Source: Rhodocyclaceae bacterium (GTDB taxonomy: Bacteria > Pseudomonadota > Gammaproteobacteria > Burkholderiales > Rhodocyclaceae). From it: a stretch of DNA of 64,000 bases. This document shows positions 41,500-64,000 of this stretch, in pieces. Both the position numbers and the translations under genes were made by a program. How positions within the stretch are numbered: the first letter of the stretch is position 1; every line of letters begins with the position of its first letter. The notes beneath the pieces are model-generated. The model ran no database searches. It worked only from the letters and a program-made list of their open reading frames with translations, and was not told the DNA's origin. The stretch covers positions 28,680 to 92,679 of the forward strand of contig JAGRFQ010000028.1 of assembly GCA_020445945.1 (NCBI GenBank), given 5' to 3'.

Positions 41500-41817
41500 A
41501 TGAAGAGCGCCGACTTGCACGAACAGATCCGGGAAATCAACCTCGCCTACCTCATGCTCGCCCAGCAGATGGTGCGCGAGGACCGCGAAGCGGCCATGTT
41601 CCGGCTCGGCATCGCCGCCGACGTCGCCGAGTTGCTCGATGGGCTGAGCACCGCCCAGGTGGTGCGCATGGCCAGCCAGCAGATGGTGTTGTGCCGCTTC
41701 CGCTTCGACGACAGCGCGATGATCGGGATGCTCACCGGCAAGGGCCGCGACGCTGCGACCTCGTCGCTTCACGCCGCCATCATCGCCGCCGCCACCCCGG
41801 TGGAAGCGCTGGCCTGA
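41500..41817 (+). CDS. flhD: flagellar master regulator FlhD
   Basis: IREINLAYLMLAQQM...AMFRLGI...LCRFRFDD...H. Confidence 0.95.
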   Translation: MKSADLHEQIREINLAYLMLAQQMVREDREAAMFRLGIAADVAELLDGLSTAQVVRMASQQMVLCRFRFDDSAMIGMLTGKGRDAATSSLHAAIIAAATPVEALA

Positions 41818-41835
41818 GCCGGCACGGAGCCCATC

Positions 41836-42387
41836 ATGCGAAATAAAAGCGTTCTGGCCGAGGCTGAAGATATCCAGCGCGCGGTGGACATGATCCGCCT
41901 CGGCGCGCGCATGCAGATGCTGGAGACCGAGACCAAACTCAGTCGCGAGCGGCTGCTCAAACTCTACAAGGAAGTGCGCGGCGTCTCGCCCCCGAAAGGC
42001 ATGCTGCCGTTTTCGACCGACTGGTTCATGACCTGGCAGCCGAACGTGCACTCCTCGCTGTTCATGTCCTTCTACCGCTTCATGAAAGACGAGGCCGGTC
42101 TGAGTGACCTGGACGCCATCATCAAGGGCTTTCGCCTCTACCTCGACCACATCGAAGCCGAGGATCTCGACGAAGTGCTGAGCCTCACCCGGGCGTGGAC
42201 CCTGGTGCGTTTCTTCGATGCCGATTTGCTTCAGCAGGCCACCTGCACGTGTTGCGGCGGACATTACGTCGCGCATGCGTATGACCCGACGCATGAATTC
42301 GTGTGCGGCCTGTGCAACATGCCTTCGCGTGCCGGAAAGGGCCGTCGTGCGCGCAAAGGTGTCTCTGATCGTAGTGCCATGGTCTGA
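41836..42387 (+). CDS. flhC: flagellar master regulator FlhC
   Basis: LGARMQ.LETET.LSRERL.KLYKE..G.SPPKGMLPFSTDWF; Zn-binding C..C/C..C. Confidence 0.96.
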   Translation: MRNKSVLAEAEDIQRAVDMIRLGARMQMLETETKLSRERLLKLYKEVRGVSPPKGMLPFSTDWFMTWQPNVHSSLFMSFYRFMKDEAGLSDLDAIIKGFRLYLDHIEAEDLDEVLSLTRAWTLVRFFDADLLQQATCTCCGGHYVAHAYDPTHEFVCGLCNMPSRAGKGRRARKGVSDRSAMV

Positions 42388-42416
42388 CCTCCTCCTTGCT
42401 AAGCAAGGGGTTATAT

Positions 42417-42445
42417 GCCGCCGGAGATTTTCCGGCGGCTTTTTT
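42417..42445 (+). terminator. Rho-independent terminator after flhC
   Basis: GCCGCCGGA-GATTT-TCCGGCGGC followed by TTTTTT. Confidence 0.88.
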
Positions 42446-42494
42446 ATGTGCGCCTGCCGCCGGGATGCGGTGCGCCATACCCGCCTTCGGGTGC

Positions 42495-42521
42495 TCAAGT
42501 TTCGCTTGGCAGGGCCGTTAG
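42495..42521 (+). promoter_or_regulatory. sigma28 promoter of motAB
   Basis: TCAA-gtttcgcttggcagg (N15)-GCCGTTAG. Confidence 0.72.
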
Positions 42522-42623
42522 CAGGCACATGTGGCGAGGCCTTGCGGCGCGCCGCTTCGGCAGTCTTCGGCAGGGCGCTTTGAGGCGCTGCGAATCGGTC
42601 TTACAAGCACAAGGGATGCATCG

Positions 42624-43478
42624 ATGTTTCTCATCATCGGATACGTCATCGTACTCGCGGCGTCTTTGGGGACGTACGCGGTCCACGGATCGCTGGCGGC
42701 GTTGTGGGTGCCGACCGAATACATCGCCATCGTCGGCCTGATGATCGGTGGCTTCGTGGCCAGCAACGGCATCAAGGCGATCAAGTCCACGGTGGGCGCG
42801 CTTCCGTCGGTGCTCAAGGGTTCGGCCTACAACAAGGCGTTCTATGTCGACGTGCTGGCGCTGATGTACGAGCTGCTCTCCAAGGTGCGCAAGGAGGGGC
42901 TGATGTCGATCGAAGGCGACATCGAGAACGCCGAAGGCAGCCCGATCTTTTCCAAGTATCCGAATTTTCTCGCCGATCACCACGCGGTCGAGTTCCTGAC
43001 CGACTACCTGCGCATGATGGTCGGCGGCAACCTCAACGCCTTCGAGATCGAGAACCTGATGGACATGGAGATCGAGACCCATCACACCGAGGCGCATGGC
43101 CCGGCGCACGTGATGTCAAAGGTGGCCGACTCGGTGCCGGCCTTCGGTATTGTGGTGGCGGTGATGGGGGTGGTGAACGTGATGGGCTCGGTCGGCCAGC
43201 CGCCGGCGGTGCTCGGCAAGATGATCGGCGGCGCGCTGGTGGGTACCTTCCTCGGTATTCTGGTGTCCTACGGGTTCGTCGCCCCGATCGCCGGCCAGCT
43301 CGAACAGAAGGTCGAAGAGGGCGGCAAGATCTACGAGTGCATGAAGGTGGTGCTGCTCGCGAGCATGAACGGCTATGCGCCCCAGGTGGCGATCGAATTC
43401 GGCCGCAAGGTGCTGTACTCGACCGACCGCCCGTCCTTCAGCGAGCTGGAGGAAGAGGTGAAGAACCGCAAGGGTTAA
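42624..43478 (+). CDS. motA: flagellar stator MotA
   Basis: MFLIIGY.IV; RKEGLMSIE.DIE; PAFGIVVAVMGVV; GGALVGTFLGIL..YGFV.P; EFGRK. Confidence 0.96.
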   Translation: MFLIIGYVIVLAASLGTYAVHGSLAALWVPTEYIAIVGLMIGGFVASNGIKAIKSTVGALPSVLKGSAYNKAFYVDVLALMYELLSKVRKEGLMSIEGDIENAEGSPIFSKYPNFLADHHAVEFLTDYLRMMVGGNLNAFEIENLMDMEIETHHTEAHGPAHVMSKVADSVPAFGIVVAVMGVVNVMGSVGQPPAVLGKMIGGALVGTFLGILVSYGFVAPIAGQLEQKVEEGGKIYECMKVVLLASMNGYAPQVAIEFGRKVLYSTDRPSFSELEEEVKNRKG

Positions 43479-43511
43479 GCGTCATCGACTCAGGCTTGAA
43501 ATCCATAAATC

Positions 43512-44609
43512 ATGAGTGACGATACCCAACAACCGATAGTCGTCAAGAAAATCAAGAAGGGCGGAGGCGGCGCCCACGGCGGGGCGTGGAAAATCGCCTA
43601 CGCCGACTTCGTGACCGCGATGATGGCCTTCTTCCTGCTCATGTGGCTGCTCGGCTCGACCGCCGAGGGTGACATGGAAGGGATTGCCGAATTCTTCGAC
43701 AATCCGCTCAAGGTCGGTATGGGCGGCGGCTCCGGCTCCGGCGACAGTTCCAGCATCATCAAGGGCGGCGGCGAAGACCTCACGCGCTCGGTGGGGCAGG
43801 TCAAGCGCGGCGACGTCAAGGGCAGGCAGACCATCAACCTCGATGCTGCCAACGATCCCTCCGCCGCGCCCAAGGGCGAAGACGCGAAGCAGTTCGAGCA
43901 GGCCGAACGCGCTCAACTGGTCGACCTCAAAGGCCAGATCGAAGCGCTGATCGAAGCCAGTTCGACCCTGCGCGCGATGAAGAACCAGCTCATCATGGAC
44001 ATCACCGTGGAGGGACTGCGGATCCAGATCGTCGATGAGCAGAACCGGCCGATGTTCGCCCAAGCCTCCGATCGCCTGCAGCCCTACACCAAGGAGTTGC
44101 TGCACGCCATCGGCAATGCGCTCAACAGCGTGGATAACCGCATCAGTCTGTCCGGGCACACCGACGCCAGCCGCTACGCCGGCGGTGGCGGCGGCTTCTC
44201 GAACTGGGAGCTGTCGTCGAACCGCGCCAACGCCTCGCGGCGCGAGCTGGTGGCGGGCGGGCTCGAGGACGGCAAGGTGATCCGGGTGGTCGGTCTGGCG
44301 GACATGATTCCGTTCAAATCCGACGATCCCTACGACCCGACCAACCGGCGGATCAGCATCATCGTCATGAACCGCAAGACCGAAGAGGCGGTCATGGGCG
44401 AGCGTGCCCGTCTGGATGTCAATGCAGACGCCCCGCTCGACGCGACGCGGCTGCGCGACGGCGTCAGTGCGCAGCAGGCGCCGCCGAATCCGGCGTTTGC
44501 GCTGCCGCCCACCGCAGCGCCACGCGCCGCCCCGGCGCGACGCGAGGCGTTCGATGAGCGCCCCCGCGGCCCGATACGCCCGCGCATCGTCATGCCATCG
44601 CAGCGCTGA
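43512..44609 (+). CDS. motB: flagellar stator MotB
   Basis: HGGAWKIAYADFVTAMMAFFLLMWL; GHTD; NWELS..RA; NRRISI. Confidence 0.96.
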   Translation: MSDDTQQPIVVKKIKKGGGGAHGGAWKIAYADFVTAMMAFFLLMWLLGSTAEGDMEGIAEFFDNPLKVGMGGGSGSGDSSSIIKGGGEDLTRSVGQVKRGDVKGRQTINLDAANDPSAAPKGEDAKQFEQAERAQLVDLKGQIEALIEASSTLRAMKNQLIMDITVEGLRIQIVDEQNRPMFAQASDRLQPYTKELLHAIGNALNSVDNRISLSGHTDASRYAGGGGGFSNWELSSNRANASRRELVAGGLEDGKVIRVVGLADMIPFKSDDPYDPTNRRISIIVMNRKTEEAVMGERARLDVNADAPLDATRLRDGVSAQQAPPNPAFALPPTAAPRAAPARREAFDERPRGPIRPRIVMPSQR

Positions 44610-44683
44610 GCTGCGCGTCCGGCCGGTGCGCCGCCCATATGCCAGAGGCGTTTTTCGTGCCCGTGCGTCAGCCCGTTCGGGCC

Positions 44684-44710
44684 TAAAGTCGGGCCGCCCG
44701 TTGACGATAT
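44684..44710 (+). promoter_or_regulatory. sigma28 promoter of mcpA-like/cheY/cheA unit
   Basis: TAAA-gtcgggccgcccgtt (N15)-GACGATAT. Confidence 0.7.
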
Positions 44711-44748
44711 ATCGTGCACTGCAAACCAAGCGGAAAGCGTGACCGGGC

Positions 44749-45960
44749 ATGTCGATGACACGGACTCAAATGATTCTTGCCGGCGGGGTGTGGAGCGCCG
44801 CCGTGCCGGCTGCGCTGCAGCGCATGCCGGTGCCCGGCGGCAGCATGTGGGCCGTCGCCGCGCTGGTGGCGGCAGGGTGGCTGGTGCTGCTCTGGGGCGC
44901 GGGTCGCGGGGTTGCTGTCGCCCCGGGGGATGAGCCCGAGGCGTCCGCCGACAGCTCCCAGAGGCAGGACTTTCAGCGCGCCATGGGGCACTGCGTGCGT
45001 CAGTTCGATGCCCAGTTCACGGCGGTCGACGGCGAGTTCGAACGGGTCGCCGGCGTGCTTTCCGATGCGATCGGCCAGCTCACGAAGAGTTTTCACGCCA
45101 TGCACGAGCGGACTCGGCGCCAGCAGGCCGCGGCGGCCGATCTGATGTCGGCCGGGGTGACCCTCGACGACGACAGCGGTGCCGATTTCAGCGACTTCGC
45201 GGCGCAGACCACCGAGACGATGCAGAAGATCGTCGACAGCGTCGTCACCAACAGCAAGCTGGGTATGGAGCTGGTCGAGTTGACCGATGGCATCGCCCAG
45301 CGGGCGCTGGAAGTGGAGTCGATCCTCGGCGAGATCGGTGCCATCGCCAAGCAGACCAATTTGCTCGCGCTCAACGCGGCCATCGAGGCCGCCCGCGCGG
45401 GCGAGGCCGGCCGGGGTTTCGCGGTGGTGGCCGACGAGGTGCGTGAGCTGTCGACGCGCACCACCCAGTTCAGCCAGCAGATTGCGGTGGTGATGGGGTC
45501 GATGCGCACGGTGGTCACCGACACCGAGTCGGCGATCCGACAGATGGCTTCGCAGGACATGACCTTTGCGCTGACCTCCAAGAAGCAGGTCGGTACCGTG
45601 CTGGGCGCCGTGGCGCGGTTCAACGATGCCCGCAACGACGCCATTGCCGGTTTGCACACCCAGGCCAGCGCGATGGACGAGGATCTTGCCCGGGCCATCA
45701 CCGCGCTGCAGTTTCAGGACATGGTGGCGCAGTTGATGGGCCACGTCGGTCATCGCCTGGACGGCATCCGCACGGCGCTCGGCGCGCTGGCCGAGGTGGC
45801 GCAGGCGGCACCGGCCGCGGCCGACGACGCCTCGCTCGAGGCGCTGGCGGCACGCACCGAGGCGGTGTGTGAGTCGCTCGATGCGATCGCCGCCTTCGGT
45901 ACCAGCAATCCGGTCCGGCAGGCAAACAGCGTCGCCAGCGGTGGTGTCGAATTGTTCTAG
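44749..45960 (+). CDS. McpA/CttP-like short chemoreceptor
   Basis: [30 protein letters not shown]; ALQFQD..Q; C-terminal NPV.Q...GGVELF; first gene before cheY. Confidence 0.88.
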
Positions 45961-45990
45961 CCTTGTGCCTCAGCCAACAGGAATCTCGCG

Positions 45991-46356
45991 ATGGTAAAGA
46001 CCATTCTTGCAGTTGATGACTCACCTTCGATTCGCCAGATGGTGTCGTTCACGCTCAACAGTGTCGGGTACGAGGTGGTCGAAGCCGTCGATGGCGTCGA
46101 CGCGCTGCGCGTGGCCAAGGCGCAGACGTTCGGGTTGGTGCTCACCGACCAGAACATGCCGCGCATGGACGGCCTCGGGCTGATCCGCGCGCTGCGCTGT
46201 GCGCCCGCCTACCGCGACGTGCCGATCCTGATGTTGACCACCGAGTCGTCGGAGCAGATGAAATCGGCAGGGCGCGCGGCCGGGGCCACCGGCTGGCTGG
46301 TCAAGCCCTTCGATCCGCAGAAGCTGATCGAAGTGGTCAGGAAGGTCATCGGTTGA
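45991..46356 (+). CDS. cheY: CheY-like response regulator (F7/CheY2 type)
   Basis: ILAVDDSPSIRQMV.FTL, TDQNMPRMDG, LTTESS, GATGWLVKPFDP. Confidence 0.9.
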   Translation: MVKTILAVDDSPSIRQMVSFTLNSVGYEVVEAVDGVDALRVAKAQTFGLVLTDQNMPRMDGLGLIRALRCAPAYRDVPILMLTTESSEQMKSAGRAAGATGWLVKPFDPQKLIEVVRKVIG

Positions 46357-46383
46357 GTCGCGCCGCGACCGCAGGAGGGCTTC

Positions 46384-48489
46384 ATGGCCATTGACATGAC
46401 CCAGTTCTACCAGGTGTTCTTCGACGAAGCCGACGAGCACCTGGCGCAGATGGAATCGCTGCTCGTGGCGCTGGATCTCACTGCGCCCGACATGGAAGAC
46501 GTGAACGCCATCTTCCGCGCCGCGCACTCGATCAAGGGGTCGAGTGGCACCTTCGGGTTCGACGACATGATGGAGATCACGCATGTCATGGAGACCCTGC
46601 TCGACAAGGTACGCAAGGGTGAGCTGGCGCTCGACACCGAGCGGGTCGACGCCTGCCTGCGCGCCGGTGATGTATTGCGCACCCTGCTCGGTGCGCATCG
46701 CGGTGGCCAGGCCGCCGACCCGGCCGCGGCGGCGCTGATCCGCGATCGGCTGAACGCGCTGTGCGCGGGAGAGGGCGCCCCGGCTGCGGCGTCGGCCACG
46801 CCGCTCGTGGCGCCGCCGGCTGTTTCAGCGCCGGCGTCGCCGGACGACGCTGAAATGCGGTCGCTGGAAGTGCGTTTCGTCCCCGAGCCGCACGTCGCCG
46901 GTCAGCGCGAGTTGATGAGCAACATGCTCGAAGAGCTGGCCCGGCTGGGCTCGGTCGAGGTGCTCGAAGAGCCGCCGCCGGATGCGCAATACGGGCAATG
47001 GCGCCTGGCAATGTGCACACGTCTGTCCGAGGCGGACTTGCGCGGGGTGATCGATTTCATGGCCGAGCCGCGCTCGGTCGTGATTCTGGCGCGCAGCGAT
47101 GCTGCGGCCGCCCCGCCGGCATCGGCGACGGCCGAGGCGGCGTATGGTTTCTTCGCGCCCCGCCCGGCGGCCGCCGAGGCCGAAGTCGAGGTCGAGGCGG
47201 TGGACGAGGAGGCGGCGTTCGGCTTTTTCGCGCCCCTGCCGGCGGTTGCGCCGCCAGCGGTGCCGGCCGAGCCCGCCGACGCGGCAAGCGCGCCCGCCAA
47301 GGTCAAGGCGGACAGCTCGATCCGCGTCAGCGTGGAGAAGGTCGACCAGCTCATCAACATGGTCGGCGAGCTGGTGATCACCCAGTCCATGCTCCAGCAG
47401 TCGGCGAGCCAGATCAACCCGGTGCTTTTCGAATCCTTGATGAGCAGCCTGGTGCAACTGGAACGCAACACCCGCGATCTGCAGGAATCGGTGATGTCGA
47501 TCCGCATGATGCCGATCTCGGCGGTGTTCTCGCGCTTCCCGCGGGTGGTGCGCGATCTGTCGCAGAAGCTCGGCAAGCAGGTCGAACTCAAGACGCGCGG
47601 CGAAACCACCGAGCTCGATCGCGGCCTGATCGAGCGCGTCGCCGATCCGCTGACGCATCTGGTACGCAACAGCCTCGATCACGGCATCGAGTCGCCCGAA
47701 GCCCGCCGCGCGGCCGGCAAGGCCGAGAGTGGCACCATCACCCTGGCGGCGGCGCACAAGGGCGGCAGCGTGGTGATCGAGGTGAGCGACGACGGCGCCG
47801 GACTCGACCGCGCGCGGATCCTTGCCACAGCGCGCGAGCGCGGCATCGTGGCGCCGGACAGCTTGAGCGACGCCGAGGTCTGGGCGCTGATCTTCGACGC
47901 CGGCTTTTCGACCGCCAAAGAAGTCACCGAGGTCTCCGGCCGCGGGGTCGGCATGGATGTGGTCAAGAAGAACATCGCGGCCATGGGCGGGCGCGTGGAG
48001 ATCGAATCCATGCTCGGCGTGGGCACGCGCATCACCGTGCGCCTGCCGCTCACGCTGGCGATTCTCGACGGCATGTCGGTGCGCGTTGGCGGGGAAACCT
48101 ACATCCTGCCGCTCAACTACGTGGTCGAGTCGCTGCAGGTCACGCGCGACATGGTGCACAGCATTTCAGGGGCCGACCGGCTGATCCGGCTGCGTGGCGA
48201 GTTCATCTCCGTGGTCCCGCTCGGCACGCGCTTTGGCGTCGCGCAGGCGCAGACCGACTGGTGCGCCGGCATCATGGTGGTGGTCGAGGCCGACGGCCTC
48301 AAGGCGGCCTTGTTCGTCGACGAACTGGGCGGCCAGCACCAGGTGGTCATCAAGTCGCTGCAAGCCAACTTCCGGCGCGTGGACGGGGTCTCCGGGGCAA
48401 CCATCATGGGTGACGGGCAGGTGGCGATGATCCTCGACGCGCCGAGCCTCGTCAGCGGCGCGCGCCGGCGCTTGCAGTCCGTCGCCTGA
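46384..48489 (+). CDS. cheA: chemotaxis histidine kinase CheA (F7 class)
   Basis: QFYQVFFDEADEHL, IFRAAHSIKG, SIRVSVEKVDQLIN.VGELVI, LVRNSLDHGIE, SGRGVGMDVV, CheW domain. Confidence 0.96.
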   Translation: MAIDMTQFYQVFFDEADEHLAQMESLLVALDLTAPDMEDVNAIFRAAHSIKGSSGTFGFDDMMEITHVMETLLDKVRKGELALDTERVDACLRAGDVLRTLLGAHRGGQAADPAAAALIRDRLNALCAGEGAPAAASATPLVAPPAVSAPASPDDAEMRSLEVRFVPEPHVAGQRELMSNMLEELARLGSVEVLEEPPPDAQYGQWRLAMCTRLSEADLRGVIDFMAEPRSVVILARSDAAAAPPASATAEAAYGFFAPRPAAAEAEVEVEAVDEEAAFGFFAPLPAVAPPAVPAEPADAASAPAKVKADSSIRVSVEKVDQLINMVGELVITQSMLQQSASQINPVLFESLMSSLVQLERNTRDLQESVMSIRMMPISAVFSRFPRVVRDLSQKLGKQVELKTRGETTELDRGLIERVADPLTHLVRNSLDHGIESPEARRAAGKAESGTITLAAAHKGGSVVIEVSDDGAGLDRARILATARERGIVAPDSLSDAEVWALIFDAGFSTAKEVTEVSGRGVGMDVVKKNIAAMGGRVEIESMLGVGTRITVRLPLTLAILDGMSVRVGGETYILPLNYVVESLQVTRDMVHSISGADRLIRLRGEFISVVPLGTRFGVAQAQTDWCAGIMVVVEADGLKAALFVDELGGQHQVVIKSLQANFRRVDGVSGATIMGDGQVAMILDAPSLVSGARRRLQSVA

Positions 48490-48553: not shown

Positions 48554-48582
48554 TCCCGGGGACAGAGACCGGGAGAGCCGAG

Positions 48583-49104
48583 ATGCAGTTTCAGCCAGCC
48601 GCAACGCCGGGCAACGCCTGGCACGACGAAGAAATCGCGGCCGACGAATTCCTCACCTTTACGCTGGGCGGCGAGGAGTACGCCATCGACATTCTCAAGG
48701 TGCAGGAGATTCGTGGCTACGACGCGGTCACCAGCATTGCCAACGCGCCGCGTTTCATCAAGGGGGTCATCAACCTGCGCGGCACCATCGTGCCGATCGT
48801 CGATCTGCGCATCAAATTCGGCGTCGGCGAGGTGACCTACACGGCGTTTACCGTGGTCATCATTCTGAATGTGGCCGAGCGCGTGGTCGGTATCGTGGTC
48901 GACAGCGTCTCCGATGTGCTGGCCCTGCCCGCCGCGGCGATTCGCCCGGCGCCCGACTTTGCCGCCCAGGTCGGCGCGGCCTACATCCTAGGGCTGGGCA
49001 CGCTCGATGCGCGGATGCTGATTCTGGTCGACATCGAGCGCCTGCTGCTCTCGCCCGACATGGCGCTGGTCGACGATGACGCATCCGCCGAGGTGGCCGC
49101 CTGA
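48583..49104 (+). CDS. cheW: chemotaxis coupling protein CheW
   Basis: [23 protein letters not shown]; [17 protein letters not shown]; [10 protein letters not shown]. Confidence 0.95.
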
Positions 49105-49119: not shown

Positions 49120-52100
49120 ATGAGTGGTTCAACGCCATCAATGCCGGCAAGCAGCTGGCTCGAACGCCGGCTCGGGCGCTTCAGCCTGTCCGGCAAGGTC
49201 GGGCTGATGGGGACGGTGCTGCTGGCTTTGTCGCTGATGCTTGCCGCGTTGCTGATGGGGCTGCACTGGCAGGCCCTCGAACGGGCTGAACGCGAACAGC
49301 TGGGTGTCGACGCGGCGCGGCCGATGATCGGGCTGATCGATGCCGTACAGCGCCATCGCGGGCAGCGCAGCCGCTGGCTCAATGGCGAGCAGAGCGCCGT
49401 CGGCGACGTTGCCGCAATGCGCACCCTGGTCGACCAGGCCATCGCCCAGGCCGACGCCGGCCTCGGCACCCTCGTCGATACGCTGGCGATGCGCGAGGCG
49501 TGGGCCGGCCTGAAGACGCGTTGGGGCGCCTTGCGCGAGGCGCGCCCCAGCGCCGCGGAGGACTTCGCGCAGCATTCGGCCTGGATCGACGATGCCATTG
49601 CCTTCATCGTACTGGCGGCGGACCGCTCGGGGCTGAGCTTCCACGCCTCGGTCGATGCCTATTATCTGAAAGAAGTGGTGGTTTTCGGCCTGCCGAGCCT
49701 GATCGAAAGTGCCGGCGTGGCACGCGGGTTGAGCGCCGGGCTGGCCGCGCGCGGGCAGCTCTCCAGCGCCGAGCGCGTTCGTCTGGGGGCCGCGCTGGCG
49801 CGGCTTGATGCCCGGCATACCGCGCTGGCGGTTGCGCTGAGCAAGGCCGGTGCGGTCAACCCGCAACTGCGCGCCACGCTGGAGGCGCGCAAGCGCGCCC
49901 TTGAGGCGGCGGTTGCCGCGCTGAGCGATGCACTGAGCACCCATATTGTCGATGCGCCGACGCTTGGCATCGACAGCGCGCGCGCGTTCTCGGTGGGAAC
50001 CACGGTGGTCGATGCGGGTTACGCCCTGTGGCGGGACAGTCTCGACAGCCTGGCGGCAGCGCTGGCGGAGCATGCCGGGCAGCGGTCCCGCGCGCTGCTG
50101 CAGATCGGTCTGCTGGTGCTGGTGCTGCTGATGTTCAGCGCGGTGTTGTTTCGTACGATCAGCCGCGCCATCGGCCGTTCGGCCGGAATCATCTCAAGTG
50201 GCGCGAAGCGCTTTGCGGCGGACGACCTCGACCAGGACGTGCGGGTTGCCGGGCGCGACGAATTTGCCAGCATCGCCGATTCGCTCAATCGCATGCGCAG
50301 GGCGCTGGCCGCCAACCGCGAGGCCGAGCAGGCGCTCGCGCGGGAGAACCTGCGGATTCGCGAGGCGCTGGATGTGGTGAACACCAACATGCGCATCGCC
50401 GATGTGGATGGCACCGTGGTCTACGCCAACCGGGCGATGCTCGAAACCTTGCGGCGTGAAGAGGCCAACATTGCCAAGACCGTGCCGGGGTTTTCGGCGG
50501 CCGGTTTTGTCGGCTCCAATGTGGGGATGTTCTACCCGCCGGAGATTGCGGCGTCCAAGGTGGCCTATCTGGCCGCCCTGAACGCGCCCGAACGCTTCGA
50601 GTTGGAGATCGGCGGGCGCTTGTATGCAATGACCGTCAGCCCGGTGATCGGCGAGAACGGCGAGCGGGTCGGGACGGTGGCCGAGTGGCACGACCGGACC
50701 GCCGAGGTGGCCGCCGAGCGCGAGGTGACGGGCTTGGTCGAGGCGGCCGGCGATGGCGATTTCTCGCGGCGCATCGCGCTCGCCGGCAAGCACGGCTTTT
50801 TCCGCCAGACCGCCGAGGGCATCAACCGCTTGATGGGGGTGATGTCGGCGGCGATCGAGGATGTGGCGCGGGTGCTGGCCGCGGTGGCCGGGGGCGACCT
50901 GAGCCAGAAGATCGAGGCTGAGTATCTGGGCACCATCGGCGAGCTCAAGGACAGCGTCAACAAGACGGTCGAGCAGTTGCGCGAGGTGGTCGGCCAGATC
51001 CAGCGTTCGACCGATGTGATCAGCGCCGCGGCCGGCGAGATCGCGACCGGCAACAACGACTTGTCGATCCGCACCGAGACCCAGGCGATCTCGCTCGGGC
51101 GCACCGCCAGTTCGCTCGAGGAGCTCAGCGTGACGGTGGCGCACAACGCCGACAGCGCGCGCGAAGCCAGCGAGCTGGCGGCGAGTTCGAACGCGGTGGC
51201 CGAGGCCGGGGGCGACAAGATGGTGCGGGTGGTGGGCACCATGGGCGACATCCAGGCTGCCGCGCGGCGTATCGGCGACATCATCGCGGTGATCGACGCG
51301 ATCGCCTTTCAGACCAACATCCTGGCACTCAATGCCGCGGTGGAGGCGGCCCGCGCGGGTGACCAGGGGCGCGGTTTTGCGGTGGTGGCCTCGGAGGTGC
51401 GCGGGCTGGCCCAGCGCAGCGCCCAGGCGGCACGCGAGATCAAGACGCTGATTACCGAATCGGTCGAGAAGGTGGAGGGCGGTGTAGCGCTGGTGAGCGA
51501 TGCGGGCCAGACCATGGATGAGGTGGTCAGCAACTCGCAGCGCCTCCGCGCGCTGGTCAATGACATCAGCCAGGCCACCCGCGAGCAGCGCAGCGGCATC
51601 GAGGAGGTGGCCCGTGCAGTGAGCGAGATGGACCAGATCACCCAGCAGAACGCGGCACTGGTGGAGGAGGCCGCGGCGGGTACCGAGGGGCTGGCGTCGC
51701 AGGCCGAGGAGTTGCGTCAGCAGGTGGCGCTGTTCCGGCTCGCCGACGGCGGCGCGGCGCAGGCGGAAATCGACGCGCTCGATGTCGACGCGGTGATCGG
51801 CACGCATCTGCGCTGGCGCCAGCGATTGAGCGCGTATCTGAAAGGGGTGGGTGAAACGCTGGACGCGGAAGAGGTTGGCTGCGATTCGGCGTGCACGCTG
51901 GGTCGCTGGATCTACGGCCCGGGCGCGCGTCTGGGGCGTGACGCCGAGATCGAACGGCTGCGCGCGGTGCACGCCCGCTTCCAAGTGTGCGCGCAAGACG
52001 TGGTTGAACGCCATCAGGCCGGCGATTCGGCGGGGGCCCAGCGGGTGCTCGACAGCGCGTTCGCGGTGCTTGCCGAAGAGGTGGTCAAGTGCCTGCGGTC

Positions 52101-52152
52101 CTTCAAGTCGCAAGGGGGTGAGGCCGGGCGAAAATTTGTGCGGGTGGCGTAG
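49120..52152 (+). CDS. chemoreceptor: TM - NIT-like periplasmic domain - TM - HAMP - Aer2-type PAS - HAMP - MCP signal - CZB
   Basis: QRHRG and YYL...LP.L.E..G..RG (NIT-like); 'IAD..G.VVYAN...EW.DRT' PAS; [20 protein letters not shown]; C-terminal H.W...C.LG.W...H. Confidence 0.88.
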
Positions 52153-55114: not shown

Positions 55115-55116
55115 CC

Positions 55117-55996
<880 letters not shown>

Positions 55997-56013
<17 letters not shown>

Positions 56014-56617
56014 GTCGCTGTTCACCGAGCATCTGGCGGGCAACCGCTATTTCGACCGCAGTTTCGCGATCGACGCCGTCAAGGTGCTGCCGGGCGAATA
56101 CTTCGTGACCGCGAAGAACGAGGTGCTGGTGACCGTGCTCGGCTCCTGCGTGTCGGCCTGCATTCGCGACCGCTGTCGCGGCATTGGCGGGATGAACCAT
56201 TTCATGCTGCCGGTGCGCGGCGATGCCGATCCGCTGATGTCGGCCTCGGCGCGTTACGGCATCTTTGCCATGGAGGTGTTGATCAACCACCTGCTCAAGC
56301 TCGGCGCACGGCGCGAAGATCTGGAAGCCAAGGTGTTTGGCGGCGGTCGCGTGGTGGCCTCGCTCAGCGGCTGCGATGTGGGCGAGCGCAACGTTGCGTT
56401 CGTGCGTGCCTATCTGGCGCGTGAGCGCATCGCGCTGGTGGCCGAAGACCTGCTCGATGTGCATCCGCGCAAGGTCTATTTCTTTCCGCTCTCCGGGCGG
56501 GTGATGATGAAAAAACTGGTGCTCGAGCGCAACGATTGCGTCGTCGATCGCGAGCGCGCCTACGCCAGACAACTGCGCGACACGCCGGTCTCCGGCGATG
56601 TCGAGCTGTTCCGGTGA
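55997..56617 (+). CDS. cheD: chemoreceptor glutamine deamidase CheD
   Basis: [38 protein letters not shown]. Confidence 0.95.
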
Positions 56618-56627: not shown

Positions 56628-57722
56628 ATGACGATCAAGGTCCTCGTCTGCGATGACTCGGCGCTGGTGCGCGTGCTGCTCACCACCGTGATCAACGCCC
56701 GGTCCGACATGACGGTGGTCGGTTGCGCGCCCGATGCGCTCGCGGCGCGGGAAATGATCAAGTCACTCAACCCCGATGTGCTGACGCTCGATATCGAGAT
56801 GCCGCGCATGGACGGGCTCGATTTCCTCGAAAAATTGATGCGCCTGCGGCCGATGCCGGTGGTGATGATCTCCAGCCTCACCGCGCGTGGGTCGGACGCC
56901 GCGCTCAAGGCGCTCGAACTCGGCGCGGTGGACTTCGTGGCCAAGCCGGTGGCGACCGATCCGCGCGCATTGGCAAACAGTGGCGACGAAATCTGCGACA
57001 AGCTCCGCGCGGCCTACAAGGCGCAGGTGGCCCGCTTGCGCGAGGTGCCGGGTGCGACCGAGGCGCGCGCGACACCGGCGCTGCCCTCGCGCCTGCTCGA
57101 CGAGCGCCTGATCTGCATCGGGGCGTCGACCGGTGGCACCGAGGCGATTCGCGAAGTGCTCATCCACCTGCCCGCGCAGTGCCCGCCGGTGCTGCTGGTG
57201 CAACACATGCCGGAGATGTTTACCGGCTCGTTCGCGCGGCGCCTCGACGGCGTATGCACGCTTCACGTCAAGGAGGCCGAGCACGGCGAACCGCTTCGCC
57301 CCGGGGTGGCCTATCTCGCCCCCGGCCACTCGCATCTGACGCTCACCTCCAGGGGCGGGCGGTATTGCTGCGCGCTCTCCCAGAGCGAGCCCGTCAACCG
57401 CCACCGCCCCGCGGTGGATGTGCTGTTCAATAGCGTCGCGGCGTGCGCCGGGCGGGCCGCGCTGGGCGTGCTGCTCACCGGCATGGGCAAGGACGGCGCG
57501 CGCGGTCTGCTGGCGATGCGTGCTGCCGGGGCGTGGACCGTGGCGCAGGACGAGGACTCGTGCGTGGTGTACGGCATGCCGCGCGAGGCGGCACATATCG
57601 GCGCCGCGGTGGAGGTGGCGCCGCTCAAGGACATTGCACCGCGTGTGCTCAATCAACTACTGCGCGGCGATGGCGCTTTGCGCCTCGGGCCGCGCACCGA
57701 ATCAGCGACAAAAGTGAGGTGA
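56628..57722 (+). CDS. cheB: chemotaxis methylesterase CheB
   Basis: REC ([10 protein letters not shown]) plus [29 protein letters not shown]. Confidence 0.96.
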
Positions 57723-57726
57723 TGAC

Positions 57727-58026
57727 ATGGAAGTAACGGTGACCAGGAGCGCTGATGGCGCGCAGATCAAGCTCAACGGGCGCTTCGACTTCAACGCCCA
57801 CCGCGAATTTCGCGACGGGGTTGACCGGGTCTTGAAGGAGAACGGCCGGGTGGATGTGGATCTGGCCGACGTGGCCTACCTCGACAGTTCGGCGCTGGGC
57901 ATGCTGCTGATGCTGCGTGACAAGGCCAAGGGCGGGAACCGCGAGGTGCGCCTGGTCAATGCGCGCGGCAGCGTGCGCCAGGTGCTCGACATCGCCAATT
58001 TCGGCAAGCTGTTTGCCATCCCCTGA
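57727..58026 (+). CDS. STAS-domain anti-anti-sigma factor, HsbA-like
   Basis: GRFDF.AH..FRD...DL....YLDSSALGMLL.LRD...L.I.NF..LF, closely resembling Pseudomonas HsbA as recalled. Confidence 0.85.
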   Translation: MEVTVTRSADGAQIKLNGRFDFNAHREFRDGVDRVLKENGRVDVDLADVAYLDSSALGMLLMLRDKAKGGNREVRLVNARGSVRQVLDIANFGKLFAIP

Positions 58027-58185
58027 GTGCGGCGGGCGTTTGCGTCCGCAAGCCTCGCGCGGGGGTGTCACCGGCCCGGTGGCGGGAGACGGCATGGCGT
58101 GGTGTGCGCCATGCCGTTGTTTTTTCAGGCGCGCGGGGCCCCCCGCGATGGCAGGACCATCCGGCGGCGCGGTGGGCGCCGTCCC

Positions 58186-58212: not shown

Positions 58213-58283
58213 GCGGCTTATCGGCTCTCGCGTCGGCACCGGCGTCGCGATGGGTCCAACCGGAAGTGGTGGAGGAAGGAGTC

Positions 58284-59963
58284 ATGGGGATATACCTCGT
58301 GTTGGCGCTCACGGGCGTTGCGATTGCCGCCGCGGGCATTGGCGCTGCGCTGATCGGCGGCGGGACATTGTCGGCCAGCCTGGTCGGGGCCAACCTGCTT
58401 GGCGGGGCGGTGATTGCCGCGGCCCTCGGTGCGCTGTTGCGCAGCCGGATTCTGGCGCCGCTGGCGTCGCTGACCCAGACCTTTGTGCATATGCACCACA
58501 ACGGCGACCTGTCGCACCGGGTGTCGCTGGGGGCGGGACCGGTGGGGCTGTGTGGCGAGCGCTTCAATGAGTTGATCGAGAGTTTCCAGGGCATCATCGG
58601 CAAGGTCATCTTCGACGCCGACCGGGTGGCCAATACCGCCGACAAGCTGTCGGCTCATGCCAGCACCGTGGCGCAGGGCTCGCGGGCGCAGCGCACGGCG
58701 TCGGAGACCATGGCGCGCAGCATCGAGGACATGACGGCCGGCGTCAATGCGGTGGCCGAGCATGCCAGCCAGACCGCAAAGAACGCCCAACAGGCGCGCG
58801 AGCTGTCGCTCGAAGGCGGCAAGATCGTGTCGCAGGCGTCGGACGAGATTGAGCGGATCGCGCGTTCGGTAGAGCAGTCGGCGCAGGTCATCGGTGCGCT
58901 GGGCGAGCGCTCGGAGGCGATCAGCGGCATCGTCAAGGTGATTCGCGAGATCGCCGACCAGACCAATCTGCTGGCACTCAACGCGGCCATCGAGGCGGCG
59001 CGCGCCGGCGAGCAGGGGCGGGGTTTCGCGGTGGTGGCCGACGAGGTGCGCAAGCTGGCCGAGCGCACCTCGAGCGCGACCACCGAGATCAGCACCATGA
59101 TCGAGGCGATCCAGGACGAGACGCAGTCCGCCATCGGGTCGATCGAGGAAGGGAGCGAGCAGGCACGCAGCGGTGCCTCGCTGGCCCGCCAGGCGGCCGA
59201 TGCGCTGGAGAAGATCAATGTCGGTGCCACCGAGACGATGGAGAAAATCGACGCCATCGCGACGTCGATTTCGGCACAGAGCCGCGAGGCCGACGGGGTG
59301 GTGTGCAACGTGCGCGAGATCATGTCGATGGTCGAGCAGAACTCGACGGGCGCGTCCAACACGCTGGAAGAGGCCAAGCGGCTGGAGTCGCTGGCGGCCA
59401 ATCTGCACGAGGTGAGCAAGGTGTTCCGTCTGGGGCAGGCCGGCGAGCAGGCGATGGACATTCATGGGCGCATGCCGGCGCTGGTCACCTCCTCGGCGCG
59501 GGCCGTCGGACGTGCGCTGGAGAGCGCGGTGGCGCAGGGGCGGATCGATATCGACAAGCTGTTCGACAGCAAGTATGACCCGATCCCCAATACCAAACCG
59601 CAGAAATTCAAGACCGCTTTCGACGCGCTCACCGACGAGCTGTTCCCGTCATTGCAGGAGGGCGTGCTCAGCAGCAACAGCGAGGTGGTGTATGCCATTG
59701 GCTGCGATCTGCGCGGCTATGTGCCGACCCACAACAACACGTTCTGCAAGCCGCTGACCGGCGACTACGAGGTCGACTTCGTGGGCAACCGCACCAAGCG
59801 CATCTTTGATGACCCGGTGGGCAAGCAGTGTGGCGCGCATGAGCTCGAGTTCCTGATCCAGACCTACCGTCGCGACACCGGCGAGATCATGCACGACGTG
59901 TCGGCGCCGGTGTATGTGAATGGCCGCCACTGGGGCGGTTTCCGCATCGGCTACCGCGCCTAA
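58284..59963 (+). CDS. chemoreceptor with TM hairpin, HAMP, MCP signal and extra C-terminal domain
   Basis: [40 protein letters not shown]; C-terminal D.RGY.PTHN...NRTKRIFDD...[23 protein letters not shown]. Confidence 0.92.
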
Positions 59964-59988
59964 AGGAAGAATGGAACCATGCCGTTAG
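59961..59988 (+). promoter_or_regulatory. possible sigma28 promoter of cheV-cheV-cheY-cheZ-cheA
   Basis: TAAA (the MCP stop codon)-N16-GCCGTTAG; spacer one nt longer than the others. Confidence 0.45.
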
Positions 59989-60055
59989 TAGTGGCGAAAC
60001 CGGTTACCAATGCACCTCGCAGGCGGGCTTCCGGGCGCGCCGTCGGAGAGATGAA

Positions 60056-61024
60056 ATGTCGGACTTGCTGAAGAACATCGATGCGCGCACCCGCCTGGCA
60101 GGCACGAACAAGCTGGAGATCCTGCTGTTCTCGCTGGGGACCGATGCGCGCACCGGGCGACGCGAGACCTACGGTATCAACGTGTTCAAGGTGCGCGAGG
60201 TGATGCGCACGCCGCCGATCACCTCGGCGCCCGAGATGCCGCCCTCCGTCGAGGGCATGGTGAGTTTGCGCGGGGTGCTGGTGCCGGTGGTGGATCTGGC
60301 CAAGTACGCCGGGATCGGCGACGGGGCCAAACGCGAAATCATGATCGTCACCGAGTACAACGGTCACACCCAGGGGTTCCTGGTCGAAGCCGTCGATACC
60401 ATCCTGCGGCTGGACTGGGCGCAGATGCGTGTGCCGCCGGCCATGCTGATGGCCAAACTCGGTGGCCTGGTGACCGCCGTGACCGAATTGCCGAACAACG
60501 AGCTGGTGATGATGCTGGACGTCGAAAAGGTGCTTGCCGAGACGGCGGGCAGCGACGACGAGCACCTGTTCAAGGGCATCGAGCCGCTGGACGAAGAGAA
60601 CGTCACCATTCTCTACGCCGACGATTCGTCGGTGGCCCGCAACCAGATCGCACGCACGCTCGATGTGCTCAAGGTTCGCGGCATCGCGGCGGTCAATGGC
60701 CGGGCTGCGTGGGATGAGCTCGACAAGATCGCCCGCGCCGCCGACGCCAACGGACGCAAGATGCGCGATGTGGTGCGGCTGGTGCTGACCGACATAGAGA
60801 TGCCGGAGATGGATGGCTACATCCTGACCAAGAAGATCAAGTCCGACCCGCGCTTCGAAGGCATTCCGGTGCTGATGCATTCGTCCCTGTCCGGGATGTC
60901 GAACCAGCAGCTCGGGCTGTCGGTCGGGGTGGATGAATACGTGCCCAAGTTCGAGCCTCAGCGCCTGTCGTCAACCCTGCGCCGTTTGCTCGGCAAGGGC
61001 GGCGTCGACGCCGAGGCGGCTTAA
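60056..61024 (+). CDS. cheV: chemotaxis protein CheV (CheW-REC)
   Basis: [49 protein letters not shown]. Confidence 0.93.
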   Translation: MSDLLKNIDARTRLAGTNKLEILLFSLGTDARTGRRETYGINVFKVREVMRTPPITSAPEMPPSVEGMVSLRGVLVPVVDLAKYAGIGDGAKREIMIVTEYNGHTQGFLVEAVDTILRLDWAQMRVPPAMLMAKLGGLVTAVTELPNNELVMMLDVEKVLAETAGSDDEHLFKGIEPLDEENVTILYADDSSVARNQIARTLDVLKVRGIAAVNGRAAWDELDKIARAADANGRKMRDVVRLVLTDIEMPEMDGYILTKKIKSDPRFEGIPVLMHSSLSGMSNQQLGLSVGVDEYVPKFEPQRLSSTLRRLLGKGGVDAEAA

Positions 61025-61038
61025 TCAAGGATGAGCAC

Positions 61039-62016
61039 ATGAGCAAGCTTGAGACCAGACAGCCTGGCACGACGGTGGGCGGCGCGGAAAAGACCATGCT
61101 CGACGACGTCGACGCGCGCACGAAGCTCGTCGGCTCGAATCGCATGGAGATCCTGCTCTTCTCGCTCGGCACCGGCGAGACCTTCGGCATCAACGTGTTC
61201 AAGGTGCGCGAGGTGTCGAAGACGCCGTTCATCACCAAGGCGCCGAACATGCCGGTCGGGGTCGAGGGACTGATCTCGCTGCGCGGCAACGTCATTCCGG
61301 TGCTCGCGCTGTCCCGGGTGCTGGGCCTGGCGGATCCCGGCGCGCCGCTGGGCGGCTCGATGATGGTGACCGAATACAGCAAGCGCACGCTCGGCTTCCT
61401 GGTGGACGAAGTGGACCGCATCATTCGCGTCGACTGGGACCGGGTGCGCACCCCGGAGAACGTCTCCAACGGCGTCAACAGCTTCATCACCGCGATTACC
61501 GAGCTGCCCGACGGCACGCTGGTGTCGATCCTCGACGTCGAGACCATTCTCTCCAACACCTTTGGCGAGGTGGTCATCGGCAGCATCCAGCCGCTCGGCG
61601 GTGCGACCGAGGCCAACGTGTTCTTCGTCGACGACTCGGCGGTGGCCCGCAAGAAAATCGCCGAAGTGCTCGACAAGCTCGACGTCAAGCACAAGCATGC
61701 CCAGAACGGGCTCGAAGCCTGGACGCGGCTCGAAGGCATGGCCAAGCACGCGCACGCCTGCGGGCGACCGCTGGTCGATGATGTCGATCTCATTCTGGTC
61801 GATGCCGAAATGCCCGAGATGGACGGCTACGTGCTGACCCGCAACATCAAGGCCGATGTGCGCTTCGAAGGCATTCCCGTGGTGATGCATTCATCCTTGT
61901 CCTCGGAGGCCAGCCGCTCCATGGGCAAGCGCGTAGGGGTGGACGCCTACGTGGCCAAATTCGATGCCGATCACCTGGCAGAAACCCTGCGCCCGCTCTT
62001 GATGCGCCACCGGTGA
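61039..62016 (+). CDS. cheV: second chemotaxis protein CheV (CheW-REC)
   Basis: [50 protein letters not shown]. Confidence 0.93.
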
Positions 62017-62051
62017 GCGGAACCGGCGCAAAGGACACACCGGAGAAAACG

Positions 62052-62453
62052 ATGGCGGATCCAAACATGAAGTTTCTCGTTGTTGATGACTTTTCGACCA
62101 TGCGGCGCATCGTCCGCAACCTCCTCAAGGAGTTGGGATTCACCAACGTCGATGAGGCCGAAGACGGTGTCGCGGCCTTGCAAAAACTCGGCTCGGCCCA
62201 GTTCGATTTTGTGGTGACGGACTGGAACATGCCCAACATGGATGGCCTGACCCTCCTGCAGACCATCCGCAAGACACCACAGTTCAAGGACCTTCCGGTG
62301 CTGATGATTACCGCCGAGGCGAAGAAGGAAAACATCATCGCCGCCGCGCAGGCCGGTGCCAGTGGCTACATCGTCAAGCCCTTCACTGCCGCGACGATGG
62401 CCGAAAAACTGGAAAAGATCTTCGAAAAAATGGGCAAGAAGGCGGCTGCCTGA
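62052..62453 (+). CDS. cheY: motor-binding chemotaxis response regulator CheY
   Basis: [30 protein letters not shown]...DWNMPNMDG...[29 protein letters not shown] (E. coli-like). Confidence 0.97.
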
Positions 62454-62480
62454 ACGCCGTTGGACGACAGGAGGCCGATC

Positions 62481-63359
62481 ATGGCAAATCGCATGAAATT
62501 TGACGAGACCGGAGACTCGGACGATCTCCAGGCATTGTTCGACAGTATCGCCAGCGCCCCGGCAGAGAAGCCCAAACTCGAGGTGATTGCTGCGCAGGCC
62601 GACAGCAGCGGCGACGATGACGAGCTGCAAGCCTTGTTTGACGCCGTGGCCGATGAATTCGAAACCGCGGCCGCGGACGCCGAGGTGCCGCCGAGCGCGC
62701 CGCCTTCCGCGCCTGACGCCGTCGAGCGCCCGCAGCTGCCCCCCGATCATGGCGGCGAGACGATGTTCCGGCGCTTGGGCGAGATGACGCGCCGGGTGCA
62801 CGATTCGCTGCGCGAGCTGGGTTACGACAAGGAATTGAAGGACGCGGTCGAGGCGATTCCCGACACCCGCCAGCGGCTCAACTACATCGCCCAGATGACC
62901 GAGCAGGCCGCCAGCCGGGTGCTCAACGCCACCGACATCGCCCAGCCGATCCAGGAGCGTGTGGCCACCGGCGCCGACACGCTCAAGGGGCAGTGGGACA
63001 AGCTCTACGCCAACCAACTGTCGCCGGACGAATTCAAACAGCTCGCGCAGCAGACGCGGGACTTCCTCGGCAGCGTGGCCGACGACAGCCGCGCCACCAA
63101 CGCCCAGCTGACCGAAATCATGATGGCACAGGACTTTCAGGACCTGACCGGCCAGGTCATCAAGAAGGTCGTCGCGCTGGCGCAGACCCTCGAATCGCAG
63201 TTGCTCGAAGTGCTGCTCGAGACCGCCCCGGAAGACAAGCGCCCGGCGCGCAAGGACGACGGCCTGATGAACGGCCCGGTGGTCAGCAGCGCGGGCAGGG
63301 AAGATGTGGTGACCAGCCAGGAGCAGGTCGACGATCTGCTCGAGAGCCTGGGATTCTGA
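62481..63359 (+). CDS. cheZ: CheY-P phosphatase CheZ with N-terminal extension
   Basis: IPD.R.RL.YI..MTEQAA, EIMMAQDFQDLTGQVIKK, NGP, SQEQVDDLLESLGF. Confidence 0.95.
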   Translation: MANRMKFDETGDSDDLQALFDSIASAPAEKPKLEVIAAQADSSGDDDELQALFDAVADEFETAAADAEVPPSAPPSAPDAVERPQLPPDHGGETMFRRLGEMTRRVHDSLRELGYDKELKDAVEAIPDTRQRLNYIAQMTEQAASRVLNATDIAQPIQERVATGADTLKGQWDKLYANQLSPDEFKQLAQQTRDFLGSVADDSRATNAQLTEIMMAQDFQDLTGQVIKKVVALAQTLESQLLEVLLETAPEDKRPARKDDGLMNGPVVSSAGREDVVTSQEQVDDLLESLGF

Positions 63360-63421
63360 AACACGATGCAGCCCGTCGACAGGTGTCGACGCCGGCCGGG
63401 TGACAAGCGGAGAGAGCCAAG

Positions 63422-64000
63422 ATGAGCGACTTCAGCGGAATGGAAGAGCTGCTGCAGGATTTTCTGGTGGAAGCCGGAGATCTGTTGTCGGACGTGGACA
63501 ACAAGCTGGTCGATCTCGAGCGTTCGGCAGACGATGTGGGCTTGCTCAACGAGATCTTTCGCGGCTTTCATACCATCAAGGGGGGGGCCGGCTTTCTGGC
63601 CGCCTCGGAGCTGGTGACGCTGTGCCACCTGACCGAGAACCTGTTCGACAAGCTGCGTAACGGCGAGCTCGAAGTGACGCCGGAGATCATGGATGTGATC
63701 CTCGCCGCGACCGGCGCGGTGCGCGACATGTTCGGCTATCTCGAGCAAGCCACCCAGCCGCCCGCGGCAGACGATGCGCTGATCGCCAGCCTCAAGCAGG
63801 CGCTCGCCGGCGAGCTGGTGCTGGCCACCGGGGCAAGCGTCGACGCGGCACCGGCCGAGGCCGCCGCGTCGGCCGCCAGCGACGGCGGGCCGGACTGGAA
63901 CCAGATGTATCAGGTCGTGGTCGGCACTGCCGCGCCAACGGTCGAACCGTCGCCGCCGGCCACGACACCCGCGCCGCAGCCGGCCAACCCGCCGGAAGAA
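63422..64000 (+). CDS. cheA: second CheA (F6-like; 5' part, runs off right edge)
   Basis: MSDFSGMEELLQDFLVEAGDLLSDVDNKLVDLE...NEIFRGFHTIKGGAGFL...LCHLTENLFDKLRNG (Hpt domain), after cheY-cheZ. Confidence 0.93.
   Translation, partial: MSDFSGMEELLQDFLVEAGDLLSDVDNKLVDLERSADDVGLLNEIFRGFHTIKGGAGFLAASELVTLCHLTENLFDKLRNGELEVTPEIMDVILAATGAVRDMFGYLEQATQPPAADDALIASLKQALAGELVLATGASVDAAPAEAAASAASDGGPDWNQMYQVVVGTAAPTVEPSPPATTPAPQPANPPEE

Follow-up and report, generated by a model that had tools for sequence, protein, structure and literature searches.

The stretch of DNA analysed here, a 64,000-nt segment of contig JAGRFQ010000028.1 of a Rhodocyclaceae bacterium (the window, in whose numbering all coordinates are given; source genome G000, 87% complete), contains on its plus strand a motility and chemotaxis locus that begins with flhD (41500) and ends with a second cheA gene, cheA2. 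The reading that we favour, with a probability of roughly 0.6, is that this locus is a betaproteobacterial flagellar operon in which an F7 chemosensory cassette of ancestral type lies between motB and a receptor gene, and that the motor is still driven by the reduced F6-class kinase CheA2 via CheY2, the two CheV proteins being its likely sole adaptors and CheR and CheB of the F7 cassette the likely methylation enzymes for receptors of the F6 array. The comparative evidence covers gene content, classes, distribution, trees, receptor classes and motif patterns; from these we infer all interactions and the motor output of this scheme. The dispersed receptors of the 40H class, and probably McpA too, would assemble with CheV1 (60056-61024; CheW and REC domains), CheV2 (61039-62016; 50% identical to CheV1) and CheA2. 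The latter, a kinase without a P2 domain, would phosphorylate CheY2, which CheZ would reset. The F7 array, composed of two 36H receptors, CheW and CheA1, would be an accessory input to CheY1 and to the receiver domain of CheB, thereby setting the demethylation in both arrays. CheV has been described as able to serve as an adaptor (PMC4742279), and McpA of Shewanella as signalling to the F6 system (PMC9855816).

In the five-stage model of the F6-to-F7 switch (Ortega et al. 2020, PMC7184735; the preprint 10.1101/653600 gives the same account), the stage-4 order is flhDC-motAB-cheY-cheA-cheW-tar-like-cheR-cheD-cheB-cheY-cheZ, stage 3 brings the loss of mcpA and of Aer2-type receptors, and the F6 CheA remains, possibly non-functional, in 7 of 21 stage-3 and 3 of 27 stage-4 genomes. 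Set against this model, the locus is a stage-2-type F7 cassette within a stage-4-type frame, beside a probably working F6 kinase that has no CheW. The frame is recognizable by flhDC-motAB before the cassette and cheY-cheZ after it, though genes of a methyl-accepting chemotaxis protein (MCP) and two CheVs intervene. The features that are gone at stages 3 and 4, namely mcpA, the anti-sigma antagonist and the cytoplasmic PAS, are present here as mcpA, a STAS gene and Aer2 PAS-HAMP blocks.

CheA2 is the likely motor kinase, as it is kept more often than CheA1, lies on a short branch and is the only CheA in one closed genome (G474), and as 36H receptors are in a minority. In a CheA tree of 191 rows, in which F6 references were defined by gene context, CheA2 falls into a 69-row clade (support 99) that includes 21 gammaproteobacterial cheY-cheZ-cheA kinases, while CheA1 (46384-48489) groups with E. 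coli CheA in a clade of 112 rows. The tree thus confirms the F6 and F7 classes that the preliminary description of the stretch had read from short motifs, and the motifs themselves are present (FYQVFFDEA and FRAAHSIKG in CheA1, LQDFLVEAG and FRGFHTIKGGAGFL in CheA2). The assignment of CheA1 to class F8 was ruled out, as F8-like clusters form a separate clade of 9 rows; the order cheY-cheA-cheW-MCP-cheR-cheD-cheB with 36H receptors is likewise that of an F7 system. The class-specific hidden Markov models of MiST are, according to PMC6943060, not part of Pfam.

CheA1 has a P2-like region with a weak CheY-binding match (E 0.12). CheA2 (627 aa; 63422-64000, the gene extending beyond the window to 65305) consists of P1, a disordered linker bearing one short helix, and P3-P5. 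This Asp-Trp helix, at residues 158-167 (window ~63893-63922), stands in place of the P2 domain and is invariant in 57 of 57 aligned betaproteobacterial F6-class CheAs (CheA6; CheA7 is used correspondingly for the F7 class), sequences that were chosen on this very motif. The terminal branch of CheA2 in the CheA tree is 0.10, compared with 1.32 for orphan cheZ-cheA6 copies beside stage-4 systems. Such fast-evolving orphan pairs (L196-L199, L092) were found in genomes of stage-4 Oxalobacteraceae that also hold normal cheY-cheZ genes. The cheA1 gene of the closed family genome G021 (L085) is in two frames, which may reflect F7 decay underway or a sequencing error.

The search of G000 yielded one each of CheR, CheB, CheD and CheZ and three CheAs, the third being a ChpA-like protein of 1883 aa. 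Its CheW-domain proteins are CheW (48583-49104, identified by domain search), the two CheVs, CheA1, CheA2 and two proteins encoded on contig C62 with the ChpA-like kinase, so that CheW is the sole stand-alone CheW of the flagellar systems. No CheW, CheB or CheR belonging to the F6 system itself was found in this 87% complete genome, and the closed genomes G006 and G056 gave no further stand-alone CheR outside F7 and F8-like clusters. We regard the F6 part of the locus as a remnant, yet not as vestigial.

A survey of 150 genomes of the family, each at least 95% complete and with absences in drafts to be read as "not found", revealed a CheA2-type kinase in 129 and a CheA1-type kinase in 78. Both kinases occur in 72 genomes, F6 only in 57, F7 only in 6 and neither in 15; in the two-kinase genomes the genes are in tandem (at most 25 kb apart) in 36, far apart on one contig in 2 and on different contigs in 34. 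The tandem two-kinase layout is the family norm in Rhodocyclaceae, and the usual fate there is the loss of the F7 kinase, the reverse of what happened in enterics. The preliminary description overlooked this family-wide layout and the usual loss, as well as the lack of CheW, CheB and CheR in the F6 part. Among 160 genomes of the order, both kinases were found in 49, F6 only in 26, F7 only in 30 and neither in 55.

Loci with F6 only frequently have the order flhDC-motAB-[MCP]-V-(V)-Y-Z-A6-flhBA (V, Y, Z, A6 and A7 stand for cheV, cheY, cheZ and the genes of CheA6 and CheA7), and of the 18 order genomes having both, 13 (8 families, counted by eye) carry flhC at most 9 kb upstream of cheA6, which indicates that flhDC-motAB and cheY-cheZ are one F6 backbone. 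The position of F7 with respect to this backbone varies: behind motB in Rhodocyclaceae, behind cheA6 (Ferriphaselus, L179), divergent (Iodobacter) or unlinked. The closed 2.7-Mb genome G474 (L203) has flhDC-motAB-MCP-V-V-Y-Z-A6 and seven receptors; CheA6 is its only CheA, its CheW-domain proteins are just the two CheVs and CheA6, and no stand-alone CheW, CheR or CheB was found in it. In four gammaproteobacterial loci (L103, L104, L108, L109) F6 is immediately upstream of F7, and there is no CheB behind cheA6.

The proposed sharing of adaptation enzymes draws on lineages without CheA1, which often retain F7 CheR and CheB, the latter frequently minus its receiver domain. In the window, cheR (55099-56013, start uncertain) is the sole CheR gene detected in G000, close relatives of it being in Azoarcus, Zoogloea, Dechloromonas and Rhodocyclus records, which puts G000 within the wider Rhodocyclaceae, and cheB (56628-57722, Pfam/NCBIfam) includes the receiver domain. 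The loci of Azoarcus indigens, Rhodocyclus tenuis and Propionivibrio, from which CheA7, CheW and the 36H receptors have gone, read motB-cheR-cheB-...-V-V-Y-Z-A6. The 18 cheR-cheB remnants that lack CheA7 all nest among F7 CheR/CheB and have the catalytic S/H/D intact; the CheB receiver is lost in 10 of them and degenerate in one, but kept in 80 of 80 loci that have CheA7 upstream. Receiver loss amounts to seven changes on the tree, never in the reverse direction. Of 10 remnant genomes searched, 9 gave no F7-range CheA. The simplest reading would be that CheB is activated by CheA7 and acts on 40H receptors too.

Of the 11 receptors of G000, the two of class 36H belong to the F7 cassette, and six are 40H (one before cheV1 and five dispersed); a PilJ-like 40H receptor and two receptors without class make up the rest. 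Receptors of 36H-like type make up the smaller share in five Rhodocyclaceae (3/22, 5/28, 0/38, 0/33 and 0/7) and the larger share in five stage-3/4 genomes (17/19, 5/6, 18/20, 6/8 and 11/13). The two 36H receptors had been described as Aer2-derived, and the Aer2 PAS-HAMP block (PDB 3VOL) was indeed detected in both (E 1.8e-54 and 1.6e-50). Both are hybrids that kept this block and gained a periplasmic input. The first (49120-52152) comprises a NIT-like periplasmic domain, HAMP, Aer2-type PAS-HAMP-HAMP and a C-terminal CZB, the NIT call coming from an Atlas feature search alone, with no match in Pfam; the second (52256-55114) comprises an N-terminal PAS, a TarH periplasmic domain, HAMP, Aer2-type PAS-HAMP-HAMP and the pentapeptide EWEEF. 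The position of the heme-coordinating His of the PAS domain of Aer2 heme receptors (PMC10107281) is occupied by Tyr in the first and by Gly in the second. These hybrids are an intermediate for the Aer2-to-Tar swap on which Ortega et al. speculated. The 40H receptor encoded before cheV1 (58284-59963) has a candidate C-terminal PDC/Cache-like domain, the fold of which is a lead only (Atlas 0.88).

The preliminary description proposed that the locus is a possible evolutionary intermediate from which the enteric operon would arise by deletion. The class calls and the deletion geometry of this proposal hold, since removal of mcpA, of STAS-MCP-cheV-cheV and of cheA2 leaves the stage-4 order of PMC7184735; a place on the direct line to enterics is not supported. 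In trees of combined CheA, CheB and CheR (84 rows in FastTree, 40 of these rows in IQ-TREE), the Rhodocyclaceae proteins form a clade of their own (100/100) and those of stages 4 and 5 a separate one (100/100), and the base of the betaproteobacterial F7 radiation is poorly resolved; forcing Rhodocyclaceae and stages 4/5 together gave p-AU 0.044 in the approximately unbiased (AU) test under LG+G4 only, a borderline rejection. In a backbone tree of FlhC, MotAB, CheY and CheZ (32 rows), E. coli sits alongside other betaproteobacteria. The F6-only Rhodocyclaceae are interspersed there among their two-kinase relatives, which implies that F7 was lost several times. In the light of the separate clades and of the backbone tree, we regard the locus as a cousin in which the state before the takeover is preserved, the evidence giving it no status of a direct intermediate. 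Recent horizontal assembly was ruled out, because both halves of the locus group with relatives from the family.

Whether the order motB-[F7]-cheV/cheY goes back to an ancestor shared with stages 4 and 5, with the enteric operon derived from it by deletion, is a distinct question, and we hold such descent to be possible though doubtful. The junctions are equal to those of stages 4/5, and flhB-flhA follow cheA2 in many relatives, as they follow cheZ in E. coli. The decayed cheZ-cheA6 pair kept in stage-4 Oxalobacteraceae implies that their ancestor had CheA6 adjoining cheZ, and an old order can persist in lineages that are not sisters, the more so as the base of the F7 tree is unsettled. On the other hand, neither the F7 nor the backbone of Rhodocyclaceae is sister to that of stages 4/5, and the intervening lineages have F7 after cheA6, divergently upstream or unlinked, which speaks of repeated shuffling. 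As F7 occurs elsewhere at other places around the same F6 module, the motB-F7 order may be convergent rather than inherited. More tentatively still, we suggest that the E. coli operon could have originated from an F6 operon flhDC-motAB-cheV-cheV-cheY-cheZ-cheA6-flhBA that acquired an F7 cassette behind motB, and that F7 would first have given CheR/CheB adaptation to an F6 array devoid of CheW, its kinase taking over the motor only later. Rhodocyclaceae would still be in that condition and would repeatedly resolve it in the other direction, to the mirror-image chimera of an F6 kinase plus a receiver-less F7 CheB.

The most serious competitor to CheA2 as the motor kinase is a dual wiring, in which both kinases phosphorylate CheY2 and F7, with nitrate/redox-type input, steers the motor jointly with F6 and its 40H receptors. 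If it were true, the locus would be a genuine hand-over state of the F6-to-F7 switch. CheY2 (62052-62453; motor-type, NF007901 above cut-off, 77% identical to its E. coli counterpart) shows the ten-residue signature of stages 3-5, with 9 of the 10 residues that have been interpreted in print as adapting CheY to the F7 CheA. The F7 CheA of Comamonas phosphorylates the CheZ-linked CheY2 (PMC6391922), both F7 receptors have acquired a periplasmic input and no longer have the heme His of Aer2, and FliA-like promoters are predicted on both units. However, the signature score is 8-10 in 45 of 45 betaproteobacterial CheYs of V-V-Y-Z-A6 context, including strains without CheA7, and 0-5 in 22 gammaproteobacterial Y-Z-A6 controls. 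Since the residues are shared by strains that have no CheA7, they give no indication of partnership with it, and the CheY changes would be either older than the motor hand-over or unconnected to it. The frequent loss of CheA1 and the retention of CheY1 (45991-46356; 40% identical to CheY2, 1 of 10 derived signature residues) also argue against the dual wiring, which we consider rather unlikely.

The N-terminal extension of CheZ (62481-63359) consists of two acidic helices with the DLQALFDS motif (two copies, 62481-62690). This motif is present in 69 of 71 CheZ proteins encoded immediately 5' of a beta-type cheA6, in 0 of 18 gammaproteobacterial F6 CheZ and in 1 of 27 CheZ without a following CheA6; the helices are likely a docking element linked to CheA6. 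The complex prediction for a CheZ dimer with residues 1-224 of CheA2 scored 0.31 (mark 0.32). The idea that the helix was transferred from the CheA6 linker was rejected: among 1.84 billion proteins searched there were 72 matches, all close to the N-terminus of proteins of at most 477 aa and none of them CheA-linker-like, so the likeness to the linker is by eye only.

Several points weigh against CheA2 as the sole motor kinase and against shared CheR/CheB methylation. CheA1 may feed CheY2 as well, because CheY2 has the residues that let a Comamonas-type CheY work with the F7 CheA. The CheB receiver is still present in 7 of the 18 remnants, and a test on 6 independent pairs found no significant association of its loss with that of CheA7 (3.4 pairs in the same direction, 0 in the opposite one, p 0.25). 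Among the remnant genomes, G042 contains a cut F7-like cheA at another place, and G046 contains a second F7 cluster. Several F6-only genomes hold F8-like clusters, which might in principle act on the motor. The family counts treat the split cheA1 of G021 as absent, the 180-bit line behind the 36H-like receptor counts was chosen once the scores were known, and the literature searched contained no experimental or mutant work on these organisms. The published stage-3/4 interpretation, that of a motor already run by F7 and of an F6 CheA left as a relic without function, is highly improbable, for although the stage-3/4 F6 CheA without CheB/CheR "may no longer be functional" (PMC7184735), no F6 CheW, CheB or CheR turned up in G000 and decaying orphan copies are known in Oxalobacteraceae, F6 is here the kinase that is kept more frequently and is better conserved, the sole CheA of the closed G474, in genomes with mostly 40H receptors.

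The claimed order of the locus stands as flhD, flhC, motA, motB, mcpA-like, cheY1, cheA1, cheW, two 36H MCPs, cheR, cheD, cheB, STAS, 40H MCP, cheV, cheV, cheY2, cheZ and cheA2, that is, 20 genes with intact frames on one strand, backed by Pfam/NCBIfam. The flhD (41500-41817; PF05247, NF002783) and flhC (41836-42387; PF05280, NF009365) products score above cut-off, and flhC is followed by an intrinsic terminator-like hairpin (42417-42449, fold z -3.99). The motA gene (42624-43478; MotA_N and MotA_ExbB) is preceded by a predicted FliA (sigma-28)-like promoter (42495-42520, 2 mismatches), with a comparable site of at most 2 mismatches in 8 of 18 relatives. Behind motB (43512-44609; NF006548 above cut-off), another predicted FliA-like promoter (44684-44709, 1 mismatch; comparable site in 4 of 10 relatives) heads the F7 unit. 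The first gene of this unit encodes the McpA-like receptor (44749-45960; PF00015, alignment), which has no heptad class and ends with GVELF, a C-terminus that we take to resemble that of P. aeruginosa McpA. The cassette also includes cheD (55985-56617; NF010013 above cut-off) and the STAS gene for an anti-sigma antagonist (57727-58026; PF13466), a stage-1/2 F7 accessory gene.

A terminator-like hairpin (58088-58128; 14-pair stem, z -3.51) separates the F7 from the F6 unit, and a predicted FliA-like promoter (59961-59987; 1 mismatch, 16-nt spacer) precedes cheV1. The hairpin after STAS, together with the FliA-like sites predicted from a sigma-28 consensus before motA, mcpA and cheV1, suggests that the F7 and F6 parts are separate transcription units. 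A sigma-70 promoter scan stayed at chance level, and Rfam gave nothing at gathering score, with one chance-level match overlapping the flhC terminator. The GC content drops only slightly across the F6 part, from ~0.67 to 0.64. Unrelated genes, not flhBA, are downstream of cheA2. Genes for an HDOD-REC-GGDEF and a REC-GGDEF-EAL protein lie immediately upstream of flhD (37481-41315), and several relatives have a receiver protein of ~660 aa 5' of flhD; a cyclic di-GMP output of these genes for CheY1/CheA1 is possible. A flagellar hook/rod cluster, flgD-flgL, is located 25 kb upstream, at ~6800-16400.

All parts of the locus belong to known families. Their arrangement appears to be a variant not described in the published five-stage model and partly at odds with it. 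The standard account places the hand-over between stages 2 and 3, considers the betaproteobacterial F6 kinase probably dead and takes ten CheY substitutions as adaptation to the F7 kinase (PMC7184735); as we read them, the locus and related loci run counter to each of these views, including the suggestion of a non-functional betaproteobacterial F6 CheA. They also point to a CheV-built array without CheW, to a single CheR/CheB pair for two receptor classes and to receptors midway between the Aer2 and Tar architectures. The relatives offer culturable and harmless strains in three states, with both kinases, F6 only or F7 only. In the parts of PMC7184735 consulted, the main text mentions neither CheV nor Rhodocyclales, the tree file includes Dechloromonas aromatica and Gallionella, and the legend of Fig. 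4 assigns Bordetella to stage 3 and Comamonas to stage 4. Prior descriptions in the literature searched are annotation-level mentions only, and the supplement of that paper or class-aware databases may already cover part of our results. Judging from the gene orders of Bordetella and Comamonas, the two genus labels in the legend look swapped with respect to the stage definitions of the text.

Among known systems, the CA and CC clusters of Laribacter hongkongensis (PMC3180692) share the cheV-cheV-cheY-cheZ-cheA module; that of CA adjoins an MCP-cheY-cheA-cheW-MCP-cheR-cheB-cheD cluster, the sections of PMC3180692 consulted giving annotation only, with class and function unassigned. In Iodobacter, related to Laribacter, the two units are divergently arranged and lack flhDC. 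The cluster was also noted in Rhodocyclus, termed highly motile, with neither class nor function given in the accessible part of PMC8954225. With the Pseudomonas/Vibrio-type F6 system (cheY-cheZ-cheA-cheB-...-cheW) the locus shares the cheY-cheZ-cheA order, the CheA clade and the 40H receptors, but its F6 part is devoid of CheW, CheB, CheR and ParA and has two cheV genes in front; CheA2 lacks the repeated EFEALLD linker helices, whereas CheZ gained similar acidic helices. In the extreme case of G474, which is CheV-based and where no CheR/CheB was found, the system resembles that of Helicobacter pylori. The latter is of class F3 and CheV-based, has CheW and is not known to have CheR/CheB.

As in the F7 systems of stage 2 (P. 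aeruginosa Che2, S. oneidensis Che1), mcpA precedes cheY-cheA-cheW-aer2-like-cheR-cheD-cheB and an F6 kinase is present alongside; unlike them, the cassette resides inside the flhDC-motAB operon, its receptors have periplasmic inputs and no heme His, and its partner F6 system is reduced. The likeness to stage 4 concerns the skeleton order, the two CheYs, the F6-derived CheY/CheZ and the lack of F6 CheB/CheR. The locus differs from stage 4 in having mcpA, STAS, Aer2-type PAS-HAMP receptors, two CheVs and a conserved CheA6 in the cluster, in the predominance of 40H receptors, and in the position of its CheA, CheB and CheR outside the stage-4/5 clade.

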